From assembly GCA_028277945.1 (NCBI GenBank), contig JANQFH010000024.1, positions 102,917 through 166,916 on the forward strand: a DNA stretch of 64,000 bases. The letters are read 5' to 3'. Positions 2,335 through 63,780 of the stretch are shown here, piece after piece. Below the pieces are notes generated by a model, which did not search any database, was not told where the DNA came from, and saw only the letters and a list, made by a program, of their open reading frames with translations. The translations under genes and the position numbers were made by a program. Each line of letters starts with the position of its first letter. Position 1 is the first letter of the stretch. The DNA is from Oligoflexia bacterium. Its GTDB lineage: Bacteria; Bdellovibrionota_G; JANQFH01.

Positions 2335-3244
2335 GCTCGCGCTAATACAGGCAGCAACGGTACGAGACCGGCTGGTAGAAATCGACCCTAGCCTAGAGAG
2401 AGCGTGCGAAATTGTGCCCATCCATACAACGGGGGACAAAATCCAAGCTGTTGCTAGCAACCTAACCAACAAGGCCGGGCTGTTTGTCAAAGAGATTGAG
2501 AGGGCGCTCAAAAAGCAGAAGATTGATATTGCGGTTCATAGTCTAAAAGACTTGCCAGCAAAACAACACAGTGATTTCGATCTTGGCGCTTTTTTAGCCC
2601 GACAGGATCCGCGAGATGCCATTGTCTGTAGTGACCGCCGTCGTGTCGACAGCATCTGGCATATGTTACAAACGGGCGCTGCTGCAGGAGTTCGGTTTGG
2701 CACCTCAAGTCCACGCCGCAGTGCCATGTTAAGACACTATCTTCGCGATTGCCACATCCAACCTTTGCGCGGCAATGTCGATAGCCGGCTTAAAAGACTG
2801 CAAACAGATGACTTTGATGTGATTGTCTTGGCTATGGCTGGGCTGTTACGTCTTGGCTTGCAATCAGAAGCAGTACGCGCTTTACCATTACAACGTTTTA
2901 TTCCCGCAGCTGGCCAAGGAGTGGTTGTTGTTGAGCTGCTTAAACAGCAGCAACAGCTTTTAACTCTCGTGGAGCAAATCAACCATCCACCCACACAGAC
3001 GGCGGCCCTTGCCGAACGCAGCTTTATTGCCAAACTAGGAGCCAGTTGCTGGAGTGCTGTGGGTGTCTATGCCGAACTTGAAGGCGATACCATTCGTCTA
3101 CATGCCGCACTCTTTTCTAGCGACGGCAGAGAAAAGATAGAAGATCAACTCGAGGGTAGATTAGACGAGCCGGAAGAGTTGGGCTGTGGTTTGGCCGAGC
3201 GGTTTATTGCCCAGGGAGCCGCTTCGCTTATGGGAGATGGCTAA
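2300..3244 (+). CDS. hemC: Hydroxymethylbilane synthase (porphobilinogen deaminase)
   Basis: The GTG start gives MKKIRIGSRGSKLALIQA. Also present are HSLKDLP, GTSSPRR, RGNVDSRL and the cofactor-Cys region. The gene overlaps the hemA stop by 35 nt. Confidence 0.93.
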   Translation: MKKIRIGSRGSKLALIQAATVRDRLVEIDPSLERACEIVPIHTTGDKIQAVASNLTNKAGLFVKEIERALKKQKIDIAVHSLKDLPAKQHSDFDLGAFLARQDPRDAIVCSDRRRVDSIWHMLQTGAAAGVRFGTSSPRRSAMLRHYLRDCHIQPLRGNVDSRLKRLQTDDFDVIVLAMAGLLRLGLQSEAVRALPLQRFIPAAGQGVVVVELLKQQQQLLTLVEQINHPPTQTAALAERSFIAKLGASCWSAVGVYAELEGDTIRLHAALFSSDGREKIEDQLEGRLDEPEELGCGLAERFIAQGAASLMGDG

Positions 3245-25291: not shown

Positions 25292-26485
25292 TTAAGAAAG
25301 AATGTCTTTGGGCTCGGCTGCAAAAAACTCCTCTAGTGGTATCCCGCCACTGCCGATGATGAGGCTTTTAGTTTTTGAGAATTTTTCTTTCAATCGATAC
25401 AGACCCGAAGCTTTCAACGGACGTCCACTCTTTACTTCGATTGCCCAGAGCTTGTCTGCTGTTCTTACCACAAAATCGACTTCGTTTGATCGTTCTCTCC
25501 AGTAAGTGACGCTATAAGGTAGTCCCTGAAGACAGTTGAGCAAATGCCCCCCAACGGCGTTTTCGACAATCCTTCCCCACCAACTTCCATCGTTTCTAGC
25601 TTCCTTGAAATTCTTTTGCGACAAAGCATGAATAAGACCATTGTTCCAAAGAATGAGCTTCGGACTTGATCCTCTCTTTTTAGCTTGATCTCTTGGGAAT
25701 CGTTCCAGGCCGCTGACGAGAAAAGCCGTTTCTAGGAGTCTGAGGTAGTGAGCAAGCGTAGTAGTATTGCCGACATCTTGCAACTGTCCTAGCATTTTAT
25801 TGTATGAAAGAATTTGTGCTGGGTAAGCAGCTGCTAGCGCGAACAGATGACGGAGAAGAGTAGGCTTTGTAATATGCTGCATTTGTAACACGTCTCTTGT
25901 GATGGCTGTTTCTATCAATGAATCCGTGATGTAGGATCGCCAAAAACCTTCATCTTTGTAGTACAGGGCTGCCTTGGGATAACCTCCGAAGAAGAGCCAG
26001 GATTCAAGATCCCATGCGAACTTTGCCTTACACTCCGTCCAACTCCAGTGAGCAAATCGAAAAAGCGTAAACCTTCCAGCTAAACTCTCTGATAGGCCGT
26101 GTTGTAAAAGAATGGACGAAGAGCCCAGCAAGAGGACGGCAATTCTACGTCCTTGTTTCTGATCCTCATCCCATAGACGCTTAACTATTTCACTCCAACT
26201 TTGAACTTTTTGTACTTCGTCAAGGATCAATAGGGTTCTTAGCTTATTGCATTCTGATAAACGTCTAGCCACATGCCATTGGTTTTCAATCCATTCGATA
26301 CCGAAAGGTTGCATGCCATCTGCGGCTGCATAGTGAACGGATCCCTTCCATCTCTTTTCAATTTGCGTGGCAGCTGTGGTCTTGCCAACTTGGCGAGGCC
26401 CCATGACCACGTGGATGAGGTCCTTGGCCGTTTGCAAACTCTGCCAGAGCTTTACTGTGGTTGGGCGTAGATAGTCTTTTGCCAT
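25292..26485 (-). CDS. AAA+ ATPase of the AAA_14 / DUF4143 family
   Basis: Walker A VMGPRQVGKTT and Walker B LILDEVQ. The C-terminal half is typical of DUF4143 (restriction-endonuclease-like, WEVDFVV-type motif seen as NEVDFVV...WAIEVK). The gene is visibly AT-rich. Confidence 0.8.
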   Translation of the reverse strand: MAKDYLRPTTVKLWQSLQTAKDLIHVVMGPRQVGKTTAATQIEKRWKGSVHYAAADGMQPFGIEWIENQWHVARRLSECNKLRTLLILDEVQKVQSWSEIVKRLWDEDQKQGRRIAVLLLGSSSILLQHGLSESLAGRFTLFRFAHWSWTECKAKFAWDLESWLFFGGYPKAALYYKDEGFWRSYITDSLIETAITRDVLQMQHITKPTLLRHLFALAAAYPAQILSYNKMLGQLQDVGNTTTLAHYLRLLETAFLVSGLERFPRDQAKKRGSSPKLILWNNGLIHALSQKNFKEARNDGSWWGRIVENAVGGHLLNCLQGLPYSVTYWRERSNEVDFVVRTADKLWAIEVKSGRPLKASGLYRLKEKFSKTKSLIIGSGGIPLEEFFAAEPKDILS

Positions 26486-33878: not shown

Positions 33879-34454
33879 TTGCTCATGCAAGATGGGTTCT
33901 TAACCGACCGTCGAAAAGAGCTTGAAGAGAGCTTCTTTCATCGACTCGAGGTCAAGCAGCTTGAAAAAATGCAGCAGGAGCAGCAAAAGGCTGACAGACG
34001 CCAAGCCCTGAAAAACGCCTCTGGCATTGCTGACCCCGCCCTTCTCGACAAGCTGCTTGAATTAGAGATTTCGCCGCAGACCCTAGCAGCGCTCACGCTC
34101 ACGCCGTTGATAGAGGTGGCCTGGGCAGATGGTAAGATGGAGGATAAAGAGCGCACGGCGATTCTTGCCGCCGCAGAAGACCAGGGTGTGCAAAAGCAAA
34201 GCGCTGCCAGCGAGCTCCTGCAGGCGTGGCTCAACCACCGTCCTGGGCCAGAACTTATGCAAACCTGGCAAGACTACATTCAGCAGCTTGGAAAACAGAT
34301 GTCGGCAGAAGAGTTTACCGGTCTGAAACTTGCGGTACTCCACCGCGCCCGAGCCGTTGCTGAAGCCGCCGGCGGCTTCCTCGGCCTTGGCAACAAGGTC
34401 TCCAAAGAGGAAGAGCAGGTATTGCAAAAGCTGGAGAAGGCTTTTACAAACTAG
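33879..34454 (+). CDS. TerB-like (tellurite-resistance TerB / DjlA N-domain fold) protein
   Basis: EVAWADGKMEDKERTAILAAAE is a typical TerB-type helix pair. The start is probably ATG 33885. Confidence 0.45.
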   Translation: MLMQDGFLTDRRKELEESFFHRLEVKQLEKMQQEQQKADRRQALKNASGIADPALLDKLLELEISPQTLAALTLTPLIEVAWADGKMEDKERTAILAAAEDQGVQKQSAASELLQAWLNHRPGPELMQTWQDYIQQLGKQMSAEEFTGLKLAVLHRARAVAEAAGGFLGLGNKVSKEEEQVLQKLEKAFTN

Positions 34455-34906
34455 CTGGATTTGTCACTGTGCATTTGATTAATCTCTCGTTTTATAGCGG
34501 TAACAAATTGCTTGGCTGCTTCGAGATAGCCCTTTAATTCCTGCGTGCCCATTTCAAAAATTCCTAAATACTCAAATCGATTTCGCCGTTTTCTGAGGCG
34601 ATTAAACTTTAGAAGCAACTGCTTGTATTCCTTTCCCAGCATCCTTTCTACGGCAATCAGAACGCCCTGATGTTGGCGGACGGGTCCTGGGCGATAGCCA
34701 TGAAGCCTTAGCAGAGCATTAGCCGTATGAAAGAACGCCTTATATACAAAGTCCATCGCTCCAGCCTCGTCAAAGGAGATTAACTTACTTGCTGAATCAA
34801 GGTCCTTTTCGGCTCGGATCATCAGCAATTCAACCTGCTCTTTCCCTATTCCAGGCTCGTGTTTTAATTGGCCCTTTTCCAGCAAATCTTTAAAGTCCGT
34901 TTTCAT
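34451..34906 (-). CDS. HEPN-domain protein (toxin-like partner of the upstream nucleotidyltransferase)
   Basis: 151-aa helical protein lying 2 nt downstream of the MNT gene. HEPN-like LKFNRLRKRRNRFEY sits where the Rx4-6H motif is expected, with Tyr in the His position. Confidence 0.65.
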   Translation of the reverse strand: MKTDFKDLLEKGQLKHEPGIGKEQVELLMIRAEKDLDSASKLISFDEAGAMDFVYKAFFHTANALLRLHGYRPGPVRQHQGVLIAVERMLGKEYKQLLLKFNRLRKRRNRFEYLGIFEMGTQELKGYLEAAKQFVTAIKREINQMHSDKSS

Positions 34907-34908
34907 AG

Positions 34909-35502
34909 TTACGTTTTCAGTTCAATGCGCTTTTGCTTTAATACATTCATAACAAAGCTGTCTTTCTGTCTTTGCTTCCCCCCCCATTCTTCTTCGGTGT
35001 GATAGATGTAGGATATCTCTCGACTGAACTGCTTTTCTAAGGTCTGAAGTTTTTCTGTAAACTTCGAATCGTCAAATTTTTCATTATCTACAATAAGACA
35101 CAGGTCAATGTCCGAATAGGCTTTCTCCTCGCCCTTGGCAAAGGATCCATAAATAAAGCCGCGCTTGACAGCTGTAAACTCCTTTAAAAGATCTTGCAAG
35201 GCTCCCTTTATACCAATCGTCTTGAAAATAAGAGACTTTAGATCTTGGTATAAGGGATGGTCTTTATTAATGGAAAAAAATTTCTGCACTCCTCGCTTTT
35301 CCGATTTAAAGAGGTTGTCTTTTTCAAGCGCTTGCAGCTCTTTAGACAGGTTGCCGGCGCTGACTTCCAACCTACGCGCTATATCTCGCAAGTGCAGCCA
35401 AGCATCAGGATTCGTGAAAAAATAGGCAAGGAGCTTATTTCGTAGAGTCGCTTTATCTGTTCGTAGCAGTATCGGTGGCATTGTTATATAAATATATAAC
35501 AT
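34909..35502 (-). CDS. Minimal nucleotidyltransferase (MNT) with N-terminal winged-helix domain
   Basis: NTase motif YGSFAKGEEKAYSDIDL. An ArsR-like wHTH precedes it (LHLRDIARRLEVSAGNLSKELQALEKDNL). The real start may be ATG 35481 (MPPILL). Confidence 0.75.
   Translation of the reverse strand: MLYIYITMPPILLRTDKATLRNKLLAYFFTNPDAWLHLRDIARRLEVSAGNLSKELQALEKDNLFKSEKRGVQKFFSINKDHPLYQDLKSLIFKTIGIKGALQDLLKEFTAVKRGFIYGSFAKGEEKAYSDIDLCLIVDNEKFDDSKFTEKLQTLEKQFSREISYIYHTEEEWGGKQRQKDSFVMNVLKQKRIELKT
35482..35501. promoter_or_regulatory. 20-bp palindrome TGTTATATA-AA-TATATAACA at the MNT gene start (candidate operator)
   Basis: Perfect 9-nt arms at 35482-35490 and 35493-35501. A third half-site, ATGTTATAT, follows at 35503-35511. 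The MNT protein carries a wHTH. Confidence 0.45.
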
Positions 35503-50699: not shown

Positions 50700-50771
50700 T
50701 GGGGCGTCGTCAAGTGGTAAGACACAGGATTTTGGTTCCTGCATTCGGAGGTTCGAATCCTCCCGCCCCAG
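50700..50771 (+). tRNA. tRNA-Gln (anticodon UUG), CCA not encoded
   Basis: The cloverleaf was folded by hand. The acceptor TGGGGCG pairs with CGCCCCA. The D stem is GTC/GAC. The anticodon stem is CAGGA/TCCTG with loop TTTTGGT. The T arm is GGAGG-TTCGAAT-CCTCC and the discriminator is G. It is close to E. coli tRNA-Gln as I remember it. Confidence 0.9.
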
Positions 50772-50795
50772 CTTTACGTCTAAAGTAGGTTAAAG

Positions 50796-51779
50796 ATGAA
50801 ACACAACGATAAGATCTCTCCCAGCGCCTCAGAAACGGCCAGGGACATTAAGGTCTTTAGCGGCAACGCCAACAAAGAGCTGACCAAGCATATCTGTGAC
50901 TTTCTCAACATTGTTCCTGGCGAAGCTGAAGTGAGCCGCTTTAGTGATGGTGAGACCCGGGTAGAAATTAACGAGAACGTCCGCGGTCACGATATCTTTA
51001 TCGTCCAATCCACTTGCGATCCCGTCAACGACCATCTCATGGAGCTGTTGGTGATGATCGACGCCTTAAAACGCGCCTCTGCCCATCGCATCACTGCGGT
51101 GATACCCTACTACGGTTATGCCCGTCAGGACCGCAAGGTAGCTCCGCGTGCACCTATTACCGCCAAGCTGGTGGCTGACCTGTTGGCTGCTGCTGGCACC
51201 GATCGCGTTCTCAGTATGGATTTGCACGCCGGCCAGATTCAGGGCTTTTTTGATATTCCCTTTGACCACCTCTATGCCGCTCCGGTTTTGCTCGACTATT
51301 TAAAAAAGCTCCGCGGAGACCGCGAGGTCGTGGTGGTGGCGCCAGATGCAGGCGGTACAGAGCGCGCTCGTTACTACGGTAAGCGTCTCGATGCGAGTCT
51401 CGCGGTTATTGATAAACGGCGTGAACGCGCCAATGTCTCGGCAGTGATGCACATCATTGGTGATGTCAAAGATCGGGTTGCTATTCTTGTCGATGACATC
51501 ATCGATACCGCCGGTTCTATCACCCAGGCTGTACCCGCACTGCTCGATGCCGGCGCCATGGAGGTTTATGCCGTAGCCACCCACGCCGTGCTCTCAGGTC
51601 CTGCCTTGGAACGGATTGCCGCCTCGAAGATGTTAAAGTTGGCAGTAACAGACACCATCCCGCTGAGCGAGGAGTGCCGTAAGGTCGACAAGGTTGAGGT
51701 CTTCTCCGTGGCCCAGCTCTTGGGCGAGGCCATCAAGCGCATCCACAACGCTGACTCGGTCAGCTCGCTGTTTATTTAA
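50796..51779 (+). CDS. prs: Ribose-phosphate pyrophosphokinase
   Basis: [16 protein letters not shown], the PRPP loop [10 protein letters not shown], and a typical SVSSLF C-terminus. Confidence 0.95.
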
Positions 51780-51788
51780 AGACCCCTT
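51737..51788 (+). repeat. Direct repeat DR1a: last 43 nt of prs (stop codon included) plus 9 nt
   Basis: It matches 52518..52569 at 50 of 52 positions. Both differences are silent in the Prs frame (GCT/GCC and TAA/TGA). Confidence 0.9.
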
Positions 51789-51836
51789 TGGCCCCAAAGG
51801 TAATAAATTGTTAGGGGGCCTTCTTAGTCTTCATGA

Positions 51837-52115
51837 CTAGGCCACCAGTTTTTTCCTAAGCTTTTCAAGCTCATGCTCTAGACGATCTAGTCGAGATTCC
51901 TGCTGCTTTCTGTGGTGGAGCGTGTCGCGTAGGAGCCTATTTAATAGTGTCTGATAAGGGATTCCAGTGTTGTCGGACATCTTTTTTACTTCTGCCAACA
52001 AATCAGCATCAAAGTTTATGGTAATTTTCACCTTGTGCACTTTTGCCATCTGCTGACGTATTTGACGCGTTCCTTTTTTATCAATCTTTAGCTCACTCAA
52101 CTTTGGTTGCTTCAT
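51837..52115 (-). CDS. brnA: BrnA-type antitoxin
   Basis: The ATG at 52115 gives MKQPKLSELK. VKITINFDADLLAEVKKMSDNTGIPYQTLLNRLLRD is typical of the BrnA antitoxin family. The tracked ORF starts at TTG 52154. The gene overlaps the brnT stop. Confidence 0.75.
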   Translation of the reverse strand: MKQPKLSELKIDKKGTRQIRQQMAKVHKVKITINFDADLLAEVKKMSDNTGIPYQTLLNRLLRDTLHHRKQQESRLDRLEHELEKLRKKLVA

Positions 52116-52383
52116 GGTACAGTCTCCTAAAGTTACGCCATTCGGCTGATCCAATAATACGGATCTTATTTCCTCGCCTTGTGAAACGAGTTGTGAGAAT
52201 GCGATTTGATCTTGATTTGCCTACCCAGTAAAACCGCTTCTCATTCTGAGAATGCTGTTTATCCACCATCTGCACACCTTTAGGATCAAAAAAGGTTTCA
52301 ACTGCTTCGGCAAAACGGATGCCATGTTTTTGTATATTAAGACGCTCCTTGTCGATATCCCATTCAAATTCCACCTCAATCAC
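52093..52383 (-). CDS. brnT: BrnT-type toxin (DUF497 ribonuclease family)
   Basis: FEWDIDKERLNIQKHGIRFAEAVETFFDP is the BrnT/DUF497 N-terminal signature. GTG start. A TGgTAATAT extended -10-like box lies upstream on the minus strand. Confidence 0.8.
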   Translation of the reverse strand: MIEVEFEWDIDKERLNIQKHGIRFAEAVETFFDPKGVQMVDKQHSQNEKRFYWVGKSRSNRILTTRFTRRGNKIRIIGSAEWRNFRRLYHEATKVE

Positions 52384-52517
52384 TTACCGTATATATATGT
52401 ATATTACCATATTTTCACTCATGAGCGGGTCGTTGCTGAGCCAGACAAATAAGTTCTTTATTGTCAAATAGTTATTATTTCTGGTTACTAGAATAGCGGC
52501 GCAACTCAGCATGATTG

Positions 52518-52569
52518 GCGCATCCACAACGCCGACTCGGTCAGCTCGCTGTTTATTTGAAGACCCCTT
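52518..52569 (+). repeat. Direct repeat DR1b: orphan copy of the prs 3' end
   Basis: See DR1a. Homology to prs starts abruptly at GCGCATCC, and no prs-like sequence lies upstream of it. Confidence 0.9.
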
Positions 52570-52741
52570 CCTTCTCACGGGAGCCTGAGTCGCAAATAGG
52601 AAAAATTTTACGCAGTTTTATTTATGCCTCATCTGAATAAGTGTTTGAAAATTAACAGCTTTTCTCCTGGCACTTTTCTTGCTTTAAAACTTGCTATAGA
52701 AATGGAGAATGAATCATTCAGGCATTCATAGGAGTATGAAA

Positions 52742-53161
52742 ATGAAACGAATATCACTCATGTTTATCCTGGGAGCCGTGTTGGTACCCGTTTCGGGCTA
52801 CTCTGAACTCAGCATGGTTGAATGTGTCGCCCTTAAACAGATTATTGAAGAGTATGCGGTGACAAAGCCATTAAAAGAGATGTCCGGGAATGGTTCAGGG
52901 AATATTGGCCTGTCCGACAAAGCGACCCCAGAAGAGATTGCGGAGGCAGAACGACAGGCAGAGAAGATACAAGCAGCGTATGAAAAAAGAAAGCTTGAGG
53001 TAGAAGCTGACAATAAAGAAGCCCAAGCATTCAATGAGGAGATGAAAAGAAAACGGCAAGCAGTTGAAAAAGTGTATTCCGACAACGCGTGTGAAGAACA
53101 CTTCGAAGATCTTCTTAGTACGTTGGGTGTAAAGCTAGGTGACGAGCAAGAAGGCGACTAG
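52742..53161 (+). CDS. Small secreted Lys/Glu-rich coiled-coil protein
   Basis: The ATG at 52742 lies 7 nt after AGGAG. Signal peptide MKRISLMFILGAVLVPVSGYS, then a charged helical region (EEIAEAERQAEKIQAAYEKRKLEVEADNKEAQAFNEEMKRKRQAVEK). No family recognised. Confidence 0.5.
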   Translation: MKRISLMFILGAVLVPVSGYSELSMVECVALKQIIEEYAVTKPLKEMSGNGSGNIGLSDKATPEEIAEAERQAEKIQAAYEKRKLEVEADNKEAQAFNEEMKRKRQAVEKVYSDNACEEHFEDLLSTLGVKLGDEQEGD

Positions 53162-53194
53162 AAGGCCAAATCTGATATTGCCTCGGTTTCTTAT

Positions 53195-54496
53195 CTAAGA
53201 GCTATCCTCTGTGGATCTTTCTTTCTGCCTTTGAATATAGGTGTGGGTATTGGAGAGGGCTTGAATCATATCCTTATCTGTCTCAGCCAAAAGAGCTGTT
53301 GCTACTTTCTCTAATGCCTCATCTGCACGGTTGATGTTGACCGCCACCAGTGCCTCTGCCTTGGCAGCAAGCGCCAGAGCATAACTATCGTCGATCGTGC
53401 GCCATAACTCTTCCTCGGCACGCTGCTCGTAAAAGGCAAATTTTCTCTCAAGGCTCTTGGCTTTAAGACCTAGTGCAGCTTGACGCCGCACCTCTCCATC
53501 CGCATCATCTAACCGCGCGATAAACAGGATAACTACCTCATCGTTCTTTTTCCAATCGAGGAATCCGAGCGCAGCCGTTGCCCGCTGCCGTGATCGTTGA
53601 TCATCGTTGTCGCCCGTTGCTTGTGCCAGCAATGAAAACGCCAGATCGAGTAAGGCTCTGTTGAATTCTAAATAGTATAATATGGTTTCCATGTCCTTAA
53701 CCATGAACTCCTTATCGGTAGTCAGGTAGTTTTCAACCAAATCCTCAAGCAGCACTGAGTAGGCGTCATCACCTTCTTCGTCGGACATGGGTTTATATTC
53801 CAACAAGTAGCCAAAGGCCACGGGAAGGGCCTCTCGCTGCCAAACCACATCTTCATCATTCCCTTTGAACTGCAGGTAATGGTCTGAGTAGAGTGCCTCG
53901 ACGGTTAGAGGTCTACTATAGAGGTGCTCACGCAGCTCAGACCCCACTAAAAATTTGTTTCTTTCTGCAAAACCTAACTCTGCCAACCAGACCCAAGTTC
54001 GATCTCCATGGCCAAGTTTAGCCAGTGTATGCAACGCCTGCGCTATAGCGTCCCTTAAGGTGAAATTTTTCTCTTCTTTTGCTTGGCGCGCATCTTCTTC
54101 TATCGCTACATCCAACAACTCATCGAAAGCAGCACCATACTCCATGGCAACTAAGGTCTCGACTGCCTGCTGTCGCAATTGTGCCGCCTGCCATGAGGAT
54201 TCCTCACCTTCTTCGGCACTCTTAACGATTTCTAGAACCGCCTCTCCCGCCTTTTCAGCAGCCTCTTTGCCTCTGTCAGCTAACATACAGAGAGCAGTGC
54301 TGCGCGTTTCGTAGCTCCATTCACTACTCAGTCGCTCTACCAAGGTGTCGATGTCGTCTATCAAGCCTGCAGGGTTGGCAATGCCTTGCGGGCAATGTGC
54401 CCGTGCGACTGCCTGGTTCGTTAACGTTGAGCTCATGACAAAGATACAGGCCAAAACAGTCGAGAGTCCGATCTTACTTTGGCTAGGTAAAGACAT
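53195..54496 (-). CDS. Secreted HEAT-repeat protein
   Basis: The ATG at 54496 lies 6 nt after GGAGG. Signal peptide MSLPSQSKIGLSTVLACIFVMSSTLTNQAVARA. It has HEAT-like units (TRSTALCMLADRGKEA; LDDADGEVRRQAALGLKAKS). It is divergent from the 2411-aa gene. Confidence 0.6.
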   Translation of the reverse strand: MSLPSQSKIGLSTVLACIFVMSSTLTNQAVARAHCPQGIANPAGLIDDIDTLVERLSSEWSYETRSTALCMLADRGKEAAEKAGEAVLEIVKSAEEGEESSWQAAQLRQQAVETLVAMEYGAAFDELLDVAIEEDARQAKEEKNFTLRDAIAQALHTLAKLGHGDRTWVWLAELGFAERNKFLVGSELREHLYSRPLTVEALYSDHYLQFKGNDEDVVWQREALPVAFGYLLEYKPMSDEEGDDAYSVLLEDLVENYLTTDKEFMVKDMETILYYLEFNRALLDLAFSLLAQATGDNDDQRSRQRATAALGFLDWKKNDEVVILFIARLDDADGEVRRQAALGLKAKSLERKFAFYEQRAEEELWRTIDDSYALALAAKAEALVAVNINRADEALEKVATALLAETDKDMIQALSNTHTYIQRQKERSTEDSS

Positions 54497-54745
54497 GACG
54501 ACCTCCAGCGGCAAGTAAGCCCTGATTAAAAATTCCTTGAGATTTCCCTAACCTAGATATCGCATCGTGTCAACAAGACATTTCTTTGTAACATCTCTCT
54601 TACCACGGGCTTGCCACGGGCGGCTGGGTCGCAAATAGGGAGAAGACTAAGAGAACAGCTCCTGCTGGCCCAAGGTAGATGGTCACCGGCCAGCCCTAAC
54701 TTATTTTTTCTTTTTTTCCAACAACTTAGTCTTTCCCATCCCCTC

Positions 54746-54774
54746 TTGACACCCCCTAACGCATCGCATACAAG
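54746..54774 (+). promoter_or_regulatory. Candidate promoter for the 2411-aa gene
   Basis: TTGACA (54746-54751), a 17-nt spacer, then TACAAG (54769-54774). The -10 is weak. Motif-only call. Confidence 0.25.
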
Positions 54775-54795
54775 ATTTAGTTATCAGGATATAGT

Positions 54796-57700
54796 ATGGC
54801 CGAGTTTCAGCGTAAGATTTTCACATCTTCAGTATTTTTCAGGTCTTTTGGTTTGCTGTGTTGGTTTGTATTGCTCTTTGCCAGCCCAGCTTTAGCCCAT
54901 TCTTCAGCAGCTGAGCTGTATGCCAACTACCGTTCTATATACGGCAGCTATAGTTGGTGGTTAGAGCGTTGGCTGGATTGGCATGAGCAGCGGCGTAGGT
55001 ACTTTGCCGAGATTGAGAGTCCTCAAGGAGACTTCACCGCCTTTGCCGAGACCTCAGCGTTTGCCGATTTATCAGATTTAGAGCAGCGGTTCTATTATGA
55101 GAACTCGCTTAGGCAGTTCACGGTTTTAAAGGCCGATGATCTAGTCATTGTAGCTCAAGCAGAGCCCAATGCCCTGGTACGTGCACAGTTATTAGAGGCT
55201 GCCTTAGGCAACTACCTGCTCGTGCAAGACCGTTGGCGTATTGAGGCCACAGACAGAGCGTTACTTACGACCTATGCTGAAGCTGGGGATGTTTTTTGGC
55301 AGCATTACTATGAAGCGCGGCGGATGATGCTGGGTTTGGATGCCACTGCTACTTGGCAGCAGATGCTCGTTGCTTTTGATCGTTTGGCCACAGAGACCCT
55401 CGGCCTATCTGAGTACGAACGCATCTACCAGGGCTCTCAGCACTTTTTAGCTTACATAGAAGAGGAGGAGCCTCGTTCCATAGCCCGCAATCTTGCCAAG
55501 AACGGTTTGGCCCTGACCCTGTTGGAATCGAGCGATGTCAACAGTACCTGGAAGAACTCCGCTTATGAGACCTCAAAGTTAATCAAGCAACTCGGTTTGC
55601 TCTCTGTGTTGCTGGAGTGGGTCCATAACCAAGAAGCTAGTACGCTTGAGGAGGCGCTGCCTCTCCTGACAAAGCATGCTCCTAAGAGCGGCGTCCTACC
55701 CAAGCAAGAGGGTGAGCCTGGGGTGCACTATGTGGATGTGACCCAGAAGGTCTATTTGGGGTTGGGTCAAGAGAACGATCGTTGGATCCTACGTGGGGGT
55801 GAGATCTATTTACTCCCAAGCATCCAAGATAAGCAGATCACCATTGAGGTCACTGAGATTGGTGGGATGGTGGGCATGGTTCGTGACACTCCTACTGTCC
55901 AGGTAGATGACACCCAGAGAGGTACGGGACGTCTGTGGGCTTTAGATGAGGCTAAGCTGTATGCCAAGGTAAAGCTGCGCTCATCCATGCATTTTGCAGG
56001 GGATCAAGTAGGTACGATAACCGTTCAGCATGGCAGGATCATCGCCTCGGAGTATGAAGAGAACAAAGATCTCCATGGCAAGCTCTACCTAGCCTTGCAG
56101 CCGAGCAAACTACGGCGTCAATGGATCAGCTCACTATACCGGGATCTTCCCAAGCAATGGCAACAACAGGGACGTACAGATGTCGCCCTATTAGATGATC
56201 TTCTAGCACTCGAGCGTCTCTCTAAGCACAACTGGCGTTCTCGGCATGATCGTTATCTTGCCATGGCCAAGCGTTACCGCAGAGAGCACAGCCACAACAC
56301 CGCGACCCACATTGCAGAGGATAACCTGTTGTTGACCCTACACTCCCGTGAAGCTGAGGAGATGGCCGCACAGATCAATGGTTTTTTTGGCGATCGTCAT
56401 AGGGATCAACTAGCCGCTTTTACGATCTACGATCTGCCCATTTTAGTCCCCGCCTTAGCATTGATGGTTCCAAGTGGGGGTGCCAGCCTTGGTGGCGTAG
56501 CCGCGGCCACGGGGCGTAGTGTAATGTGGCGCACTCTGTTTGCTCAAGGAGCCAAGCGTTGGTTGATCCGAGGTCTTATTGGTAGCTCTATCCTCACTCC
56601 CTTACACGCGGGTTGGAAGCATCTAACTGGCCGTCCAGCCTTGGATCACATCTGGTTAGACTTTGCCGTCAATGCCACCTTTATTGCTTCGTTTGGCGGT
56701 ATTCGTGTGCTGCATCAGCTGGGAGACCGGTTGATGTTGAAGGCGCTGCCTTTTTTAAGAAAGCCAGGGGGTTATCTCGTACCACGGATGACCTTCCGCG
56801 GCACCATGGAAGCGGCTCCAGCCTTAAGCCATACAGGTACGGCGTTGAGTCAAACGGCTTTGGTTTTAGAGATGGGTATGGCTCTCACCGCAGCCTCTGG
56901 GGGTTGGAGTAATCTGCTTAGTCTCGGTGCCCAAGGTCCCAAAAGCCTGAGTGATTGGCGCGATCTGTATTTTCGTACGACGTTGATGGTGGGTATGCTG
57001 CATACCTCCTTAGTGGCTATGCGACCTGGTCTTTTACGCCAACCCATCATCGGTCAACAGATCGCTGGCCAACGCTTTGGCTTGCAACAGATCGGTCAGC
57101 AGCTGCAACCCTCGACTCGTCCAGGTTCTTCCCAGCCTGCAAACTATGCCAGACAGGCTGAAGCAGTTGCTCTGGAGATCATGGAGAGCTGGCGCCAAGG
57201 AGGCTCTGGACCTCGGCAGCCTAGCTCAAGTTGGGGAGAGGCTGGCAACTACAACAATTTTGTAGAAAGCCTGCCTGGATCCTCAACAACAGGACCGAGA
57301 GCGGCTACACCCGTAAACAGTAGACAAGTGGCGACAAGAACAACAACACCCACCTCAAGTAGAACCCAGAGCCCACAGAATAACCGGCAAACTACTCCTG
57401 AAAATACCCCCACAACAACCATGCCAGATATGCCAGCTGTGGTACCCATTACCGTACTACCCGCTATGCCAGAGATGTTCCCTGCTGAACCGGATGCAAC
57501 AACGACAATGCCTGATGAAGCTCAATCAAAAGCAGTCTTGCACAAGGCAAATTTTCAGGCTAGCAATGCCCCTCCATCCCTTCCTCCCGGCAATGACCTT
57601 TTAGATTGGTTTGCCTACGTAAAACTCTGTGCTGAATCTAGCGAATTTTGTGGTCGTTTTTCGTTTAAAGACTTTCAAACACAACGTAATGAACTGTTGA

Positions 57701-60700
57701 CAGCGTGGGGGCATCTTCTTGGGGACGAAACATTTGATCCTAAGCGCGAATTTCAGACCCTGTTAAGGCAACTCATAGTCGCACTTGAGACTGCAACAGG
57801 GTTGGAAAGATTCAAATCCTTCCGCGCTAATGAATTTGAATCGGTGGGAAGAGAAATTGAAGCACTAGGTGGGAAGATGGCCTACTATACGCTAAACATG
57901 GTGGGTGGAAGGCGTGTCATGCTAAGGCTCATTCCAGAGAGTCTCATGGATGCGGACAGGCAAGGGATCAACGTTGGCATTGTAGAGACTCAGTTTCTGG
58001 CTCAATATGATTTGGCACCAGAGATTTTAGGGGTCGTCCCAGCAGATGAACTTAAAGAACTACTGAAACTGCCAGGAATTAGTGACAACCCTCACGACCC
58101 GTTTGTTCTTGGTGTGGTGTTTGAAGATTTCAGTGATGCCTATTGGCCAGGACACGAGGAAATGCCTACAGGTGAAGAGCGCTCGTGGGACCCAATGGCT
58201 GTACGTCACCGTATGTTGGCTTTGGAATACTTTCTAGATCAATTGCATATAAACTATTCAAGCCAAATTGAGCTTCTCATCATGCCCGATGGACGAGTAT
58301 GGGTGTTCCCAAGTGACCTGCCACACTTTGCTGGGGTTGATGCAGACGTAAGGAATAATTTTGTTAGTCATCTCTGGAATCGAGTAGAGTGGGCTGACAT
58401 AGACCCTGACCGGTTTGGAGATTCTGTAGTATCGCTGCGACCCTTTCTTGAAGCCATGGGCCTACAGCCACCAAGTGGAAGGTCTCTTTCTGCGGAAGAC
58501 ATCGACGCTGAGCTCCGTGGTGAGGGCGGTATCAATGACCCGGATGAGACGGAACGACGCCTCATTGAGGGATGGCAAAGAATGATTGAACATGATGATT
58601 CTAATGGCGGTCCAAGAGGACCGCAGGCACTCTTGGACGATGGGACCTCTGGGGAGAGTTTTGGGCCACCCCTGCCTTTGGACTACGGCCCACCCCTCGA
58701 TCCAGAACTTACAGAGATGCCGTTGCTGCCGCATATTGTTCTTCCGAAGACCTCACCTTATATCGGTGATTCCCCTGGTTCCGCCACTTCCTTTGTGGCA
58801 TCCGAACAGGACAATCCATTGAGAGAGGATCGTGAAGAACAGTTTCGACATGCAGACCAAAAGCTACGATTGATTTTTGGTAATGCTGCCAATTGGGCAT
58901 TTCATAATAGTCCACCTAGCCTTGAGCACTATTTCCAAACGGAGCATGGATCACCAGAGCAAACTACACAAGAACGACAACTATTGGTGTTGCGCGCAAT
59001 GCTTGATGGCGTCTTTTTTGCTGGATTAAATAGATTGCTCGAACTCCAAAAGCTCTTTTTGTTTTCGGATGAAACGTTGCAACAGTTTAGAAGGTTCAAA
59101 GAACGTGTTCTTGCTAACCCTCCATCCAAGGGTAGAGACATAGCTGCTATTCTAGGTGAAATAGAAAAGGAGGCTAGTGATCTTATTGGCAGTCGGATCG
59201 ATGACGTTATGATTAGTGTTTTTCGCGATCCAGAGTTGGCTCCTCAGAGTGTACGGGATGCCCTTGCCCAGGCAGGTGTTGACTACCAGGACACTGTGCG
59301 TTGGAGTCCGGAAGTGCTTGCCCCAGATAAGTTTCAACAGCTGTTGTTTGAAGTTATGAAGGTTCTTGGGTGGGACGGCACTATTGAAGTCGGTATTACG
59401 TTTGGGCTTCCCGATCCTAGACATCCAGATCGACTATATCAGCTTCACGCTACAATACCTGAATGGGCTGGTTATATGGCACTGGTTCATGAGATAGGCC
59501 ACTGGTACCAAAGCTTTAGTCTTTTGCGGGCTGGGAGGCCAAGGCCTACTACACCTACCGTCACTATAGAAGGTGCCGATCTTTTCGAAACGCTTAGAGA
59601 ACTTGAAGTTTATCTTGAGATGCTAAGACCTACTGACCCAGAACATAGGACAACGGAGGAATTGCTTGACAGAGTTCACCATCTATCTCAACTTTTCGAT
59701 TATTATCTTCCACTGCTTCGCACCCTAGCTGCAAGGTCTGATCTAGTGACCGAGGTTGAAACTGCGTTACGTGTTGGAGAAGGTGAACACAGTGAAAATC
59801 CAGATTACGAAAGGTTTGTTGCATTCTGGCTTTCATTGGTTGATCCTGAATTTATACAGGAGGTTGTTGAAACACTTGATCGTCTTGAGGAACGTGCGGA
59901 AATTGTTCTCGAATTTTATTCGAGTTTAGACCTCTCCGTACGTCTTCAAAGTAGACCATCGTTGATTTTAGAAGAAGAAACCATGTCTGAGAGCGGAGGC
60001 GAAACTGTTGCGTCCTCGCCTCCTAGTCGCGGGTCTTCTCGAAGTACCTCTGTGGCGCCTGCCCGCCCTACTAGCATTGCCCAAAACGAACCTTGTCCTT
60101 GTGGCAGCGGTAAAAAATTCAAGAAATGTCATGGCGCGCCGGGTGGACCGAACGCACTCTTGGACGATGGGATCTCTGGGGAGAGTTTTGGGCCGCCCCT
60201 GCCTTTGGACTACGGCCCACCAGTCGATCTAGAACTTACAGAGATGCCGTTGCTGCCGCATTGGCATGCGGGGCAAGGCGCTGCAGGGTTTCCACTGGGG
60301 GACAGTGATGCAGATCCGCCATTCCTAACTCCTCGTTGGATCGAACAGACCACCCCGCCATGGGTGGTGGGTGACGAAGCTGATGTCGATGCTGCTGACG
60401 GTGACAACACAGACGAAACAGCAGCGCAACCACTCCTGACGCCGCTCGCTCCATCTCTATTGCCAAATGACGGGCTGTCCAATTTGCAGCTGCAAGCTTC
60501 TTCTGAGGAAAGAGATGCGGAAGACCAATCGACACCCGATGAACCCGAGGAAGCAACAACTCCAGCAGCAGAAGAAGCTCAACCAAGTGACGCTGGGCAC
60601 GAAGATGTCGTTGTAGATTTGTTAGGAGAGGAAGCCGCTACAATTTGGCATGCGCACTGGCCGTTAGAAGCTGACGCCACTGATTTAGCAGAGCAATTGT

Positions 60701-62031
60701 ACAGAGCCCTGGTTGCTGAAGCAGACATCCTAGGTAGAATGTTCGATGCGAAACTCAAAGCGGTTGGCTCTAATAGAGAGGAGGCGATTAGATGGGCGGA
60801 TCGAGATGCCGAGGGTGGAGAAGCAGAGGAAGACATCCCTGAAGATGTTTATCAGAGATACAAAAGAGCTGAAGCATTAGCGAGGGCAGATGCCGATTTT
60901 CAGCGGCAGATGCAAACCATTGAATTACTGAAGACCCTTTTAAAAGGAGCCGTAGATCGCTTAGCCAGTTGGGGCATCCATACATTGATCCATCGTCTTG
61001 GTCTTAGACCAGAACTATCCTTGGGAGAAGCGATGGGTGGTATGCCGACATGGGATGCTAACGAAGTATTTGCAGAAGCTGTGGGTAGTCTCCTACTTAG
61101 TCGAGGCATTGATTTTTTTGGTCCGGAATCCCCAATTACTGATGTGATGCTTGTTCAAGAGAGACTAAGGTGGGATTTAGCCTTGATAGCATTTACAGCA
61201 GGAGTTGATCCGGCAGTACTGACGACAGATTCTCATTATGAACTAGTACAGGACGACCTAAATGCTTTGCTACAGACGCTCGCAGTAGTTTGTCGTCGGA
61301 TTGAGGTGTTAGAGGTACAACGCGCCCTGGGACTTCGCACCATTAGCAAAGCAATAGCAGCTCTCGAAGCATTGCAAGGGGAAACAGGGCAGCGTGAATT
61401 TGAAGTTGAGGGTTTAACGGCTAACGAGAGGGATTTTTTTAATCTTGTTATATTGAATGCGCTTCCCGACGAGTTTGATGTTGCTAGTGCGATATCCGTA
61501 TTAGCAGACCTTCGTGCAGAGCAAAATCGAGCCGTTGATACAAAACAAGCGCTAGACAGATCTTTAAAGCCGTTATTGGATCTGCTTGAGCGATTTGATC
61601 AATTTCTGGGTGAACAGAGTGATGTAGAGCACAGCCTTGCGGATGCTTTTAGAGGTCAAGATGTGTCTGAACATCGGTTGAGAGAAAGAGTACAAATTTT
61701 CTTTGGTGGAAATAGAGAACTATCCGAAGCCGTCTACAAAGCTTTCCTTGGTGAACAGCATCTTGAGGGAGAAGCCAAAGTCGAATTTTGGCGTCGAGTT
61801 GCGGAGATTGCCGCTACAGCGTCTAATTTACTTTGGTCTATTGTGCACCGCCATCGAGCTCTGCCAACAGTAGAAACAATGGGCGATGGCATGGCACTAC
61901 GCTTTCAACCGGCTAGCCCTGAACTTGACCCAGCAGCAAGAGCAGAACAAATTGAGCGAGCCCTTGCTCGCGTGGCTGTAGAGTTCCGGTCCCGTCTTGA
62001 AGCGAGAGAGCGTGAACAAGGTGGTGAATAA
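54796..62031 (+). CDS. Giant multi-module protein (2411 aa): signal peptide, ~500-aa exported region, ~5 TM helices, S/T/P linker, three large modules separated by a duplicated 36-aa motif; HEIGH and SEC-C motifs
   Basis: The reading frame is uninterrupted for 7.2 kb, with AGGA 8 nt before the ATG. The N-terminus FVLLFASPALA|HS looks like a signal peptide. Hydrophobic helices lie around aa 540-745. HEIGH is at aa 1565-1569 and CPCGSGKKFKKCHG at aa 1767-1780. Confidence 0.8.
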   Translation: MAEFQRKIFTSSVFFRSFGLLCWFVLLFASPALAHSSAAELYANYRSIYGSYSWWLERWLDWHEQRRRYFAEIESPQGDFTAFAETSAFADLSDLEQRFYYENSLRQFTVLKADDLVIVAQAEPNALVRAQLLEAALGNYLLVQDRWRIEATDRALLTTYAEAGDVFWQHYYEARRMMLGLDATATWQQMLVAFDRLATETLGLSEYERIYQGSQHFLAYIEEEEPRSIARNLAKNGLALTLLESSDVNSTWKNSAYETSKLIKQLGLLSVLLEWVHNQEASTLEEALPLLTKHAPKSGVLPKQEGEPGVHYVDVTQKVYLGLGQENDRWILRGGEIYLLPSIQDKQITIEVTEIGGMVGMVRDTPTVQVDDTQRGTGRLWALDEAKLYAKVKLRSSMHFAGDQVGTITVQHGRIIASEYEENKDLHGKLYLALQPSKLRRQWISSLYRDLPKQWQQQGRTDVALLDDLLALERLSKHNWRSRHDRYLAMAKRYRREHSHNTATHIAEDNLLLTLHSREAEEMAAQINGFFGDRHRDQLAAFTIYDLPILVPALALMVPSGGASLGGVAAATGRSVMWRTLFAQGAKRWLIRGLIGSSILTPLHAGWKHLTGRPALDHIWLDFAVNATFIASFGGIRVLHQLGDRLMLKALPFLRKPGGYLVPRMTFRGTMEAAPALSHTGTALSQTALVLEMGMALTAASGGWSNLLSLGAQGPKSLSDWRDLYFRTTLMVGMLHTSLVAMRPGLLRQPIIGQQIAGQRFGLQQIGQQLQPSTRPGSSQPANYARQAEAVALEIMESWRQGGSGPRQPSSSWGEAGNYNNFVESLPGSSTTGPRAATPVNSRQVATRTTTPTSSRTQSPQNNRQTTPENTPTTTMPDMPAVVPITVLPAMPEMFPAEPDATTTMPDEAQSKAVLHKANFQASNAPPSLPPGNDLLDWFAYVKLCAESSEFCGRFSFKDFQTQRNELLTAWGHLLGDETFDPKREFQTLLRQLIVALETATGLERFKSFRANEFESVGREIEALGGKMAYYTLNMVGGRRVMLRLIPESLMDADRQGINVGIVETQFLAQYDLAPEILGVVPADELKELLKLPGISDNPHDPFVLGVVFEDFSDAYWPGHEEMPTGEERSWDPMAVRHRMLALEYFLDQLHINYSSQIELLIMPDGRVWVFPSDLPHFAGVDADVRNNFVSHLWNRVEWADIDPDRFGDSVVSLRPFLEAMGLQPPSGRSLSAEDIDAELRGEGGINDPDETERRLIEGWQRMIEHDDSNGGPRGPQALLDDGTSGESFGPPLPLDYGPPLDPELTEMPLLPHIVLPKTSPYIGDSPGSATSFVASEQDNPLREDREEQFRHADQKLRLIFGNAANWAFHNSPPSLEHYFQTEHGSPEQTTQERQLLVLRAMLDGVFFAGLNRLLELQKLFLFSDETLQQFRRFKERVLANPPSKGRDIAAILGEIEKEASDLIGSRIDDVMISVFRDPELAPQSVRDALAQAGVDYQDTVRWSPEVLAPDKFQQLLFEVMKVLGWDGTIEVGITFGLPDPRHPDRLYQLHATIPEWAGYMALVHEIGHWYQSFSLLRAGRPRPTTPTVTIEGADLFETLRELEVYLEMLRPTDPEHRTTEELLDRVHHLSQLFDYYLPLLRTLAARSDLVTEVETALRVGEGEHSENPDYERFVAFWLSLVDPEFIQEVVETLDRLEERAEIVLEFYSSLDLSVRLQSRPSLILEEETMSESGGETVASSPPSRGSSRSTSVAPARPTSIAQNEPCPCGSGKKFKKCHGAPGGPNALLDDGISGESFGPPLPLDYGPPVDLELTEMPLLPHWHAGQGAAGFPLGDSDADPPFLTPRWIEQTTPPWVVGDEADVDAADGDNTDETAAQPLLTPLAPSLLPNDGLSNLQLQASSEERDAEDQSTPDEPEEATTPAAEEAQPSDAGHEDVVVDLLGEEAATIWHAHWPLEADATDLAEQLYRALVAEADILGRMFDAKLKAVGSNREEAIRWADRDAEGGEAEEDIPEDVYQRYKRAEALARADADFQRQMQTIELLKTLLKGAVDRLASWGIHTLIHRLGLRPELSLGEAMGGMPTWDANEVFAEAVGSLLLSRGIDFFGPESPITDVMLVQERLRWDLALIAFTAGVDPAVLTTDSHYELVQDDLNALLQTLAVVCRRIEVLEVQRALGLRTISKAIAALEALQGETGQREFEVEGLTANERDFFNLVILNALPDEFDVASAISVLADLRAEQNRAVDTKQALDRSLKPLLDLLERFDQFLGEQSDVEHSLADAFRGQDVSEHRLRERVQIFFGGNRELSEAVYKAFLGEQHLEGEAKVEFWRRVAEIAATASNLLWSIVHRHRALPTVETMGDGMALRFQPASPELDPAARAEQIERALARVAVEFRSRLEAREREQGGE
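58627..58734 (+). repeat. Intragenic repeat R1 (36 codons: ALLDDGTSGESFGPPLPLDYGPPLDPELTEMPLLPH)
   Basis: It matches 60154..60261 at 103 of 108 nt by hand alignment, in the same reading frame. Confidence 0.9.
60154..60261 (+). repeat. Intragenic repeat R2 (ALLDDGISGESFGPPLPLDYGPPVDLELTEMPLLPH)
   Basis: See R1. It starts 6 codons after the SEC-C motif. Confidence 0.9.
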
Positions 62032-62045
62032 ACTAGGCTAAAGGC

Positions 62046-62075
62046 TTGACTTAGAGCGGCTGGTGCAGGTATATA
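62046..62075 (+). promoter_or_regulatory. Candidate promoter for rplY
   Basis: TTGACT (62046-62051), an 18-nt spacer, then TATATA (62070-62075). A GGCAAC...GTTGCC hairpin lies in the leader. Motif-only call. Confidence 0.3.
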
Positions 62076-62137: not shown

Positions 62138-62851
62138 ATGGAGAAGATAACACTACAGGCGGAGCTGCGGCAGAGCCGTGGTACCAACGCCAACCGTCGA
62201 CTGCGGCTGCGGGGACTCGTGCCAGCAGTGGTCTATGGCCGCGGCAGTGATCCGGTCAGCCTACAGTTCAATCCCAAGAGCTTGCTACAGGCCCTGCAGG
62301 GGGGAGAGAGTGCCACGCGGCTGATCAGCCTCGATATTAGCGGTACTAAGAAAGACAGCTCGCGCCTGGTGTTGCTCAAAGAGGTGCAGCGCGATCCGCT
62401 AACGCAGGCTTGGAGCCATGTCGACTTTCTCGAAGTCAACATGAAAGAGGCCATTACCGTACCCGTGCCGCTGCGCTACGTCGGTAAAGCCGCCGGTCTT
62501 GTACAGGGCGGGATTGTCGATATCCAACGACGTCAACTAAACATCAGCTGCCTACCGGCAGATATCCCGACCCACATTGACGTGGATGTAACGCAGCTCA
62601 ACATTGGCGATTCCCTACATATTAGTGATATTCAAGTGGCTGCAGGCTTGACCATTGTCGATAGTGCTCATCTTACCTTGGCCACGGTGGTGGTGCCTGG
62701 TAAGGAAGAAGAGCCCGCAGCCGTCAGCGAGGAAGAGGCGGCCGCGGCGGAAGCGGCAGCCGCTGAAGGCGAACAACCTGCTGCTGCAAAGCCTGAAGCA
62801 GAAGCTGACGCTAAAGAAAAAGACAAAGAGAAAGAAAAAGAGAAAACATAG
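62138..62851 (+). CDS. rplY: 50S ribosomal protein L25 / general stress protein Ctc (long form)
   Basis: The ATG at 62138 gives MEKITLQAELRQSRGTNANRRLRLRGLVPAVVYG, the L25/Ctc signature. An acidic Ala/Glu/Lys tail follows. The tracked ORF starts earlier, at 62063. Confidence 0.88.
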   Translation: MEKITLQAELRQSRGTNANRRLRLRGLVPAVVYGRGSDPVSLQFNPKSLLQALQGGESATRLISLDISGTKKDSSRLVLLKEVQRDPLTQAWSHVDFLEVNMKEAITVPVPLRYVGKAAGLVQGGIVDIQRRQLNISCLPADIPTHIDVDVTQLNIGDSLHISDIQVAAGLTIVDSAHLTLATVVVPGKEEEPAAVSEEEAAAAEAAAAEGEQPAAAKPEAEADAKEKDKEKEKEKT

Positions 62852-63120: not shown

Positions 63121-63780
63121 ATGAGTCTCAGTTTAGTAGTAGGCTTGGGCAATCCGGGCGGCGAGTACGCTGCAACAAGACACAACCTCGGCTTTCTTAT
63201 TGTCGACGCTTACCTGGCAAAGTGTGGTTTGAACTCACACAAGCACGGACTTTGGAAGCAGCTCCTGAGCAAAAAGCTGTGGCAGAAAAAATTTTCAGCA
63301 AAGTTTCTCGATCTTGAAAGGGTCGCTCCAGAAGTCCTAAAAAAAATAGGAATTCGCTATTGGTTAAAGCCCACAACCTTTATGAACCGCAGCGGCCAAT
63401 CTGTCGGTCCCTGCTTGCACACCCTGCAGTTAAAACCAGAGCAGATGTTGGTGGTGCACGACGATCTGGACATACCCCTGGGAAAAGTTAAGGTTAAGAG
63501 CTCCGGCGGTCATGGTGGCCATAACGGCATACGCTCCATCATCGACGCTGTGGCTGGCGACGGCTTCTGGCGTTTGCGTATTGGTATTGGTAAGCCAGCG
63601 GCAGATTTTGGTGGTGATGGTGCCGATTGGGTATTGCAGCCCAAAGATAGCGAAGAGCTGCAACCCTGTATTGCCGCGGGAACGCAAGCGCTCACAACAA
63701 TCGTGCAACACGGTTTAGAAAAGGCTATGCAGATCATACATACCAATACAGATAAGGAGAGAGATGATGTTGACGGATAA
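63121..63780 (+). CDS. pth: Peptidyl-tRNA hydrolase
   Basis: [30 protein letters not shown] and GGHGGHNG. It carries a ~25-aa Lys-rich insertion relative to E. coli Pth as I remember it. Confidence 0.92.

Follow-up and report, generated by a model that had tools for sequence, protein, structure and literature searches.

In the 64-kb stretch of contig JANQFH010000024.1 of an uncultured Oligoflexia bacterium that was analyzed here (hereafter the window), the gene prs, which encodes ribose-phosphate pyrophosphokinase, is followed by a predicted toxin–antitoxin (TA) module of the BrnT/BrnA type, and this module lies between two copies of the 3′ end of prs. The repeat, here called DR1, is direct, comprises the final 43 nucleotides (nt) of prs, stop codon counted, plus the 9 nt beyond it, and is identical at 50 of 52 positions (96%), with a start-to-start spacing of 781 nt between its left copy, DR1a, and its right copy, DR1b (Table 1). 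A preliminary description of this DNA had given the repeat the same extent, composition and identity, and these are confirmed by a repeat search and by the placement of prs with Pfam; the abrupt onset of homology that it reported at the second copy holds for both sides, the edges being sharp at both ends of each copy. Read in the prs frame, DR1b ends at a stop codon, but the frame lacks a start codon and is interrupted by a further stop nine codons upstream, and thus the orphan copy is untranslatable. The two copies differ by T/C at 51752, which exchanges GCT for GCC (both Ala), and by A/G at 51778, which exchanges TAA for TGA (both stop codons). Both differences are therefore silent, as had been described, but little weight can be placed on this: the rate at which a single substitution in DR1 is silent is 24% for the coding part, 37% for all 52 nt and 50% for transitions, and the corresponding probabilities of two silent differences are 0.058 (coding), 0.14 (52 nt) and 0.25 (transitions only).

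DR1 is confined to these two places in the window, within which the multiplicity of this repeat and of a second one described below was counted. With up to three mismatches allowed it has two matches, versus none expected from shuffled sequences, and a local-alignment search of the window for a degenerate third copy found none, its best score of 16 lying beside 13 to 16 in shuffles. Within the window, DR1 is thus not the generic repeat that the preliminary description had named as a possible objection. The longest identical run common to both copies is 25 nt; because they share no k-mer longer than this, assembly could not have created the junction at 52517/52518. Moreover, a separately catalogued Logan contig, SRR20820740 (4025 bp), which may share reads with the window, reproduces positions 50743-54767 with zero differences. 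We judge from these sequence comparisons that the DR1 junctions are genuine and not an assembly artifact. Folding of the junctions gave no excess of hairpins or terminators (z of −0.1 to −1.7 relative to shuffles), and the sole match in an Rfam scan was the tRNA upstream of prs.

The interval between the copies, 729 bp long (51789-52517), has brnA and brnT as its sole genes, both intact. Its noncoding DNA amounts to 48 nt plus 134 nt (182 nt in total), which leaves no space for gene remnants. The preliminary description had the interval hold only brnT, brnA and their promoter. The genes are borne out by Pfam, whereas for the promoter a consensus scan between the DR1 copies found none, and only the extended −10-like TGGTAATAT (52409-52401, minus strand) was seen, by eye. 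The toxin gene precedes the antitoxin gene, with an overlap of 23 nt, an order that is identical in three loci from elsewhere (L088, L089, and L090). BrnT matches PDB entry 7vd7_A (“toxin”) with E = 1.7e-8, and its homologs, up to 74% identical, are 93 amino acids (aa) long. Because the alignment with 7vd7_A begins at residue 4, the true start of brnT is probably the GTG at 52374, which would give 93 aa, rather than that at 52383. When aligned with the partner proteins of three BrnT homologs, BrnA is covered over its full length and is 52% identical; against the NCBIfam equivalog NF047399 it scores 16.3 bits, below the cut-off of 60. The GC content at third codon positions (GC3) is 0.39 in brnT and 0.47 in brnA, versus 0.53-0.63 in the flanking core genes, and overall GC content drops from 0.55 in prs to about 0.40-0.42 over 51800-53000; the low GC3 marks the cassette as foreign and presumably horizontally acquired. 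Among 5.8 billion protein clusters the closest BrnT is at most 74% identical, and BrnT homologs are scattered across unrelated phyla, as compact cassettes in unlike neighborhoods.

Comparison with 86 related prs loci, one of which is the identical Logan contig so that 85 come from other genomes, places the cassette at the edge of a larger insertion. The nearest relative on record, L083 (a Logan contig of 4.7 kb with a Prs 75% identical), has the gene order ispE-spoVG-tRNA-Gln-prs-rplY-pth with no intervening genes, and rplY lies within 600 nt of prs in 63 of the 85 loci; identity is at most 67% for the 80 GTDB prs loci. In L083 a promoter-like arrangement of CTAAAGGCTTGAC, 17 nt and TATATA (3081-3116) begins 8 nt past the prs stop codon and would serve rplY. 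The same 13-mer, CTAAAGGCTTGAC, recurs in the window at 62038-62075 with a −10 box TATATA (spacer N17/18), 6 nt past the stop codon of a giant open reading frame (ORF). The gene order of L083 and the 63 loci indicate that adjacency of prs and rplY is ancestral, and on that basis the ~10.3 kb from 51789 to 62037 are inserted DNA, with brnTA at their prs-proximal edge. That a TA module sits at an insertion junction, as the preliminary description proposed, is thus borne out by the direct succession of prs and rplY in L083. Its further statement that no recombinase was left behind also stands: a survey of the ORFs of at least 150 aa in the window found no integrase, transposase or recombinase domain. 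L083 carries one prs end, with 36 of 43 coding nt identical and the rplY promoter directly after it, and is too distant to give the exact preinsertion sequence.

Table 1. Features of the prs–rplY region, in window coordinates
Feature	Position	Strand	Remarks
tRNA-Gln(UUG)	50700..50772	+	Upstream of prs; conserved ispE-spoVG-tRNA-Gln-prs block, synteny as in L083
prs, ribose-phosphate pyrophosphokinase	50796..51779	+	Intact; Pfam Pribosyltran_N 187 bits, Pribosyl_synth 101 bits
DR1a	51737..51788	+	Left copy; working prs end plus 9 nt; holds a 15-nt palindrome
brnA, predicted antitoxin	51837..52115	−	92 aa; Pfam BrnA_antitoxin PF14384, 31.8 bits (cut-off 26.1)
brnT, predicted toxin	52093..52383	−	96 aa from GTG 52383; Pfam BrnT_toxin PF04365, 71.2 bits (cut-off 34.5), residues 8-78
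brnT upstream region	52384..52517	−	134 nt; candidate extended −10 TGGTAATAT at 52409-52401
DR1b	52518..52569	+	Orphaned prs 3′ end, right copy; matches DR1a at 50/52 positions; untranslatable
DR2a	52571..52605	+	Begins after a 1-nt gap from DR1b
Sigma-54 consensus TGGCAC-N5-TTGCT	52668..52683	+	No other perfect match in the window; orf139 follows 59 nt downstream
orf139	52742..53161	+	139 aa; signal-peptide-like N terminus; no family match
439-aa protein gene	53195..54514	−	HEAT-repeat similarity, weak, subthreshold
DR2b	54610..54644	+	Matches DR2a at 28/35 positions (80%); the giant gene starts 152 nt downstream
Giant gene	54796..62031	+	2411 aa; SEC-C motif at residues 1764-1780 the sole recognizable feature; bulk of the island
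rplY promoter region (putative)	62038..62075	+	CTAAAGGCTTGAC...TATATA, conserved with L083; right boundary of the island
rplY (L25/Ctc)	62138..62851	+	Ancestral downstream neighbor of prs
pth	63121..63780		After rplY; ancestral downstream neighbor of prs

Insertions between prs and rplY also occur in other lineages, if only occasionally. Five high-GC loci (L005, L012, L035, L039, and L051) contain unrelated inserts of 0.9-1.5 kb in this gap, none with a duplicated prs end, and those of L012, L035, and L051 hold small ORFs.

The locus is recovered from the collections that we searched in one form only. Exact look-ups of Prs, BrnT, and the product of orf139 returned one contig, identical to the window, and at 90% identity the Prs cluster has a single member. 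The preliminary description had suggested looking for the 52-mer next to integrases or in other islands, and such occurrences did not come to light: the invariant 25-nt core of DR1 is matched exactly in neither metagenome nor viral contigs, a degenerate 39-mer for the same DR1 peptide has no match in viral contigs, and the whole locus, compared by blastn with plasmids and phages, has none there. A second copy of a locus's own prs end is present in 0 of the 85 loci from other genomes, within the flank that was fetched for each. The literature searched yielded no report of prs as an attachment site of integrating elements.

As a tentative reading, which we favor as quite possible though short of probable, an intact brnTA cassette was inserted once at the 3′ extremity of prs and duplicated 52 bp of its target. 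Such an insertion would have brought in 729 bp, namely brnT and brnA with their own upstream region; the left copy would retain a complete prs and the right copy would be its dead orphan. The incoming DNA would have been joined to the chromosome at two points with a 52-bp stagger, without a recombinase encoded by the element, either through one join per end, of the short-homology or illegitimate type, or by a single crossover of a circularized fragment, and the brnTA unit would now be nonautonomous. Recombination between DR1a and DR1b would release a 781-bp circle carrying brnTA only and leave one prs end. In characterized type II systems the toxin outlives the antitoxin; if BrnT outlives BrnA here, deletants of brnTA would be exposed to the BrnT ribonuclease and poisoned, such that the cassette would protect itself and would persist together with its flanking repeats. 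The locus may in this way illustrate how a scar can endure, since recombination between the copies deletes the cassette and the toxin would select against that deletion. Secondarily, the cassette would oppose larger deletions of the 10.3-kb island, a stabilizing effect that the preliminary description had suggested and that, by analogy with general TA biology, it is reasonable to expect.

Several observations weigh against an insertion that left a long target duplication. No conspecific or strain-level genome with an empty site is on record in the collections searched, and such a single-copy site is what defines the class of insertions concerned. A repeat that runs from inside a gene to just past its stop codon is also the classic signature of an integrase acting at a gene 3′ end. 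Furthermore, DR1 ends on the right where the older island DNA starts, 1 nt from the repeat DR2; this points to reuse of a defined breakpoint, for which a site-specific process accounts better than random staggered joins do. Flanking direct repeats are absent from around the BrnTA cassettes of L088, L089, and L090, so this mode of insertion is not a property of the cassette family; nor is it a property of this genome, since a HEPN/MNT pair elsewhere in the window has no flanking repeats. Finally, the mechanism of long target duplication is itself unsettled in the literature searched.

The main rival to such an insertion is a decayed integrative element of the kind known as a cis-mobilizable element (CIME). 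An integrase-carrying island or prophage would have integrated at an attB site within the last 43 nt of prs, its own prs end restoring the gene, and everything but brnTA would later have been deleted, leaving attL at 51737-51788 and attR at 52518-52569. The repeat does start sharply in prs and stop 9 nt past the stop codon, the typical geometry of an attachment (att) site at a gene 3′ end, and 50/52 rather than 52/52 identity suits an attP and an attB that had differed from the start. That an edge of DR1 is an older island boundary would be expected of a reused att site, and CIMEs by definition keep attL and attR without integration and transfer genes and form tandem accretions at gene 3′ ends (PMC5704250). 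DR1a also contains a perfect 15-nt palindrome, GCTGAC-TCG-GTCAGC (51750-51764), of a type that is often found in recombinase core sites. This palindrome could be such a core or could be due to chance: by a rough estimate it occurs at about the chance level (P about 0.1), one of its arms is disrupted in DR1b by the T/C difference at 51752, and it is absent from the prs end of L083. Against a decayed element stands the lack of any recombinase gene or pseudogene, whether in the interval that the repeats enclose, in the island of 10.3 kb, or in the surveyed ORFs of the window, and with just 182 nt of noncoding DNA between the copies, all other genes would have to have been removed cleanly. At the island's far end, a local-alignment search found no third att-like copy, the core lacks matches in viral contigs, metagenome contigs, plasmids, and phages, and the finding of a duplicated prs end in 0 of 85 loci indicates that prs is no recurrent attB in these lineages. 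The 3′ end of tRNA-Gln, considered as an alternative att site, has no duplicate. We therefore regard a decayed element as possible but rather unlikely. The att-like duplication proposed in the preliminary description is only one of at least two mechanisms that could yield this anatomy, and nothing that we found points to an integrase.

It is less probable still, and in our estimation improbable, that the two copies are the prs ends of two lineages brought together by homology-facilitated illegitimate recombination. Under this scenario, a form of the alternative raised in the preliminary description, prs-brnTA DNA from a sister lineage would have entered by a homologous left crossover within prs and an illegitimate right join at 52517/52518, 43 nt before the end of the recipient's prs. 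Examples of this type of recombination are on record from naturally transformable bacteria and from Escherichia coli conjugation (PMC3240628). The differences between the copies are synonymous or stop-to-stop, as if both had once been functional prs ends, and the identity of the 9-nt tail after the stop codon argues for a very close donor. However, the silence of the differences is the only support specific to this scenario and is nonsignificant (P 0.06-0.25), no microhomology was seen at 52517/52518, and no second lineage to supply a donor or recipient allele appeared in any collection searched. The scenario also needs two lineages with different insertions at one nucleotide. That DR1 is no recombination scar at all, and represents instead a chance or functional motif or an artifact of assembling two strains, is extremely improbable. 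General caution is all that speaks for it, the window probably deriving from a metagenome assembly, and it is effectively refuted by the expectation of zero chance matches, by an orphan copy that is untranslatable and folds no better than shuffles, by the exact reproduction of the locus in the Logan contig, and by the lack of a common k-mer of more than 25 nt from which the junction could have formed. A transposon or insertion sequence was considered as well and rejected: no inverted repeat links the ends of the insert, there is no transposase, and the duplication is 52 bp long, versus the short 2-15 bp made by such elements.

After DR1b, the 10.3-kb island contains a second direct repeat, DR2, whose copies enclose orf139 and the gene for the 439-aa protein. 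DR2 is one of five direct-repeat families of at least 28 nt in the window, and a repeat comparable to it arose in 0 of 60 random windows generated by a first-order Markov model. Its 25-nt core, CACGGGNGNCTGRGTCGCAAATAGG, is found at two sites in the window and no others there, and CACGGGNGNCTGRGTCGCAAATAGG has no match in metagenome contigs. DR2a lies 137 nt upstream of the start codon of orf139, and DR2b 152 nt upstream of that of the giant gene. In addition, DR2a is 63-97 nt upstream of the perfect sigma-54 consensus, the usual position of an enhancer-binding site, and this consensus lies between it and orf139. DR2 could be either the scar of an older, second insertion or a cis-regulatory site common to orf139 and the giant gene. 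In either case, the boundary that DR1, at its right, shares with the older island DNA suggests that a breakpoint 9-10 nt past the prs stop codon has been reused. A bolder proposal, which we offer as speculation and think decidedly unlikely, is that the prs–rplY gap of this lineage is a site at which cassettes stack up without a recombinase, where successive insertions at one breakpoint each made a target duplication of tens of bp (DR1 for brnTA, DR2 for orf139 and the 439-aa gene). If this were true, not only restriction–modification (RM) modules but also TA and other cargo would be subject to insertion with long target duplication, and the process would be linked to a defined hotspot, so that its mechanism might become tractable.

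The island follows a block consisting of mreC, ispE, spoVG, tRNA-Gln, and prs. Three of the proteins encoded in it have signal-peptide-like N termini and no assigned family, among them the one of 2411 aa. GC3 is 0.46 in orf139, 0.52 in the 439-aa gene, and 0.44 in the giant gene, and the last of these has an internal repeat of 131 nt (58604-58734 and 60131-60261). Searches of the island proteins with Pfam, NCBIfam, and PADLOC gave nothing beyond the SEC-C motif and the subthreshold HEAT similarity; the first 1000 residues of the giant protein, used as the query in a homology search, gave no match, and the giant protein itself was not recovered either, the word prefilter having probably been swamped.

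Elsewhere in the window, a second TA-like pair is located at 34451-35502 on the minus strand, comprising a HEPN gene (34451-34906) and a gene for an MNT-type nucleotidyltransferase (34909-35502); it occupies a low-GC pocket (0.41-0.45) amid core genes, with no long flanking direct repeat. A gene for an AAA_14/DUF4143 ATPase (25292-26485, minus strand) is likewise set amid core genes, and a gene of homologous type is found near prs in L084.

We place a modest value on these observations. The brnTA locus is a real and fairly ordinary insertion scar, whose TA cargo is new for its class in the literature searched. As one instance in one uncultured genome, its main use is to point the way, and to warn against taking each duplication at a gene end for an att site. 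If the right reading is that the insertion made a long target duplication, the locus would show the clean entry of a minimal type II TA module into a chromosome, alone, in the manner of some RM modules, and with an essential neighbor preserved by the long duplication, and it would support the idea that the spread of addiction modules need not involve a carrier element.

The cassette itself agrees closely with the BrnT/BrnA system, the prototype of which is that of Brucella abortus. Each protein exceeds the Pfam threshold for its domain, the toxin gene comes first in an operon of overlapping genes, and the proteins are of typical size (93-96 aa and 92 aa). Points of difference are that BrnT is at most 74% identical to its closest homolog and that BrnA falls short of the NCBIfam equivalog; toxin and antitoxin activities are predicted from sequence.

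Described CIMEs are several kb in size, whereas the interval here is 729 bp with one operon, far smaller. Direct repeats of the attL/attR type, one copy of which rebuilds the 3′ end of the target gene, a lack of recombination genes, and a tandem arrangement with other inserted DNA at one gene end are features that the locus has in common with them. TA modules, moreover, are common accessory cargo of elements that derive from integrative and conjugative or integrative and mobilizable elements, such as CIMEs (PMC5704250). The locus departs from CIMEs in that no related intact element is seen, no integrase domain is encoded in the surveyed ORFs of the 64 kb, and no attR is found at the far end of the neighboring island; of the two marks by which descent from an integrase-encoding element is recognized, neither a recombinase gene or pseudogene among the surveyed ORFs nor, in the collections searched, a related intact element with the same att site was seen.

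The closest resemblance is to RM modules inserted with long target duplication, for which Nobusato et al. 2000 is reportedly a source alongside Furuta, Abe, and Kobayashi 2010. In Haemophilus influenzae and Thermus thermophilus, RM modules are flanked by duplications of 46-47 bp, with 44/46 identity, that extend over the 3′ ends of flanking genes, and these low-GC inserts lack mobility genes (PMC2853133). The class was delimited by inserts of <20 kb that carry an addiction module and no mobility genes, by a non-multicopy repeat of >30 bp, a threshold that separates it from typical site-specific repeats, and by a single-copy empty site, and its repeats frequently lie across start or stop codons (PMC2853133). 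RM and TA systems have been treated as parallel addiction modules, with this mode of insertion reported for RM only (PMC3874152); the literature that we searched likewise states it for RM and not for type II TA systems. The present insert is 729 bp long with brnT and brnA alone, and its 52-bp repeat occurs in two copies in the window. Because the conspecific empty site that defines the class is unavailable, we describe the locus as resembling these insertions and not as a proven member of the class. It differs from them in this missing comparison and in its cargo, a type II TA system instead of an RM system. In other respects the likeness is extensive: a module capable, by prediction, of postsegregational killing is the lone cargo and there are no mobility genes, the repeat is 52 bp long (46-47 bp in the RM cases) and identical at 50/52 positions (44/46 in the RM cases), it runs over the stop codon of a flanking gene that survives the insertion, and the insert falls below the genome in GC content.

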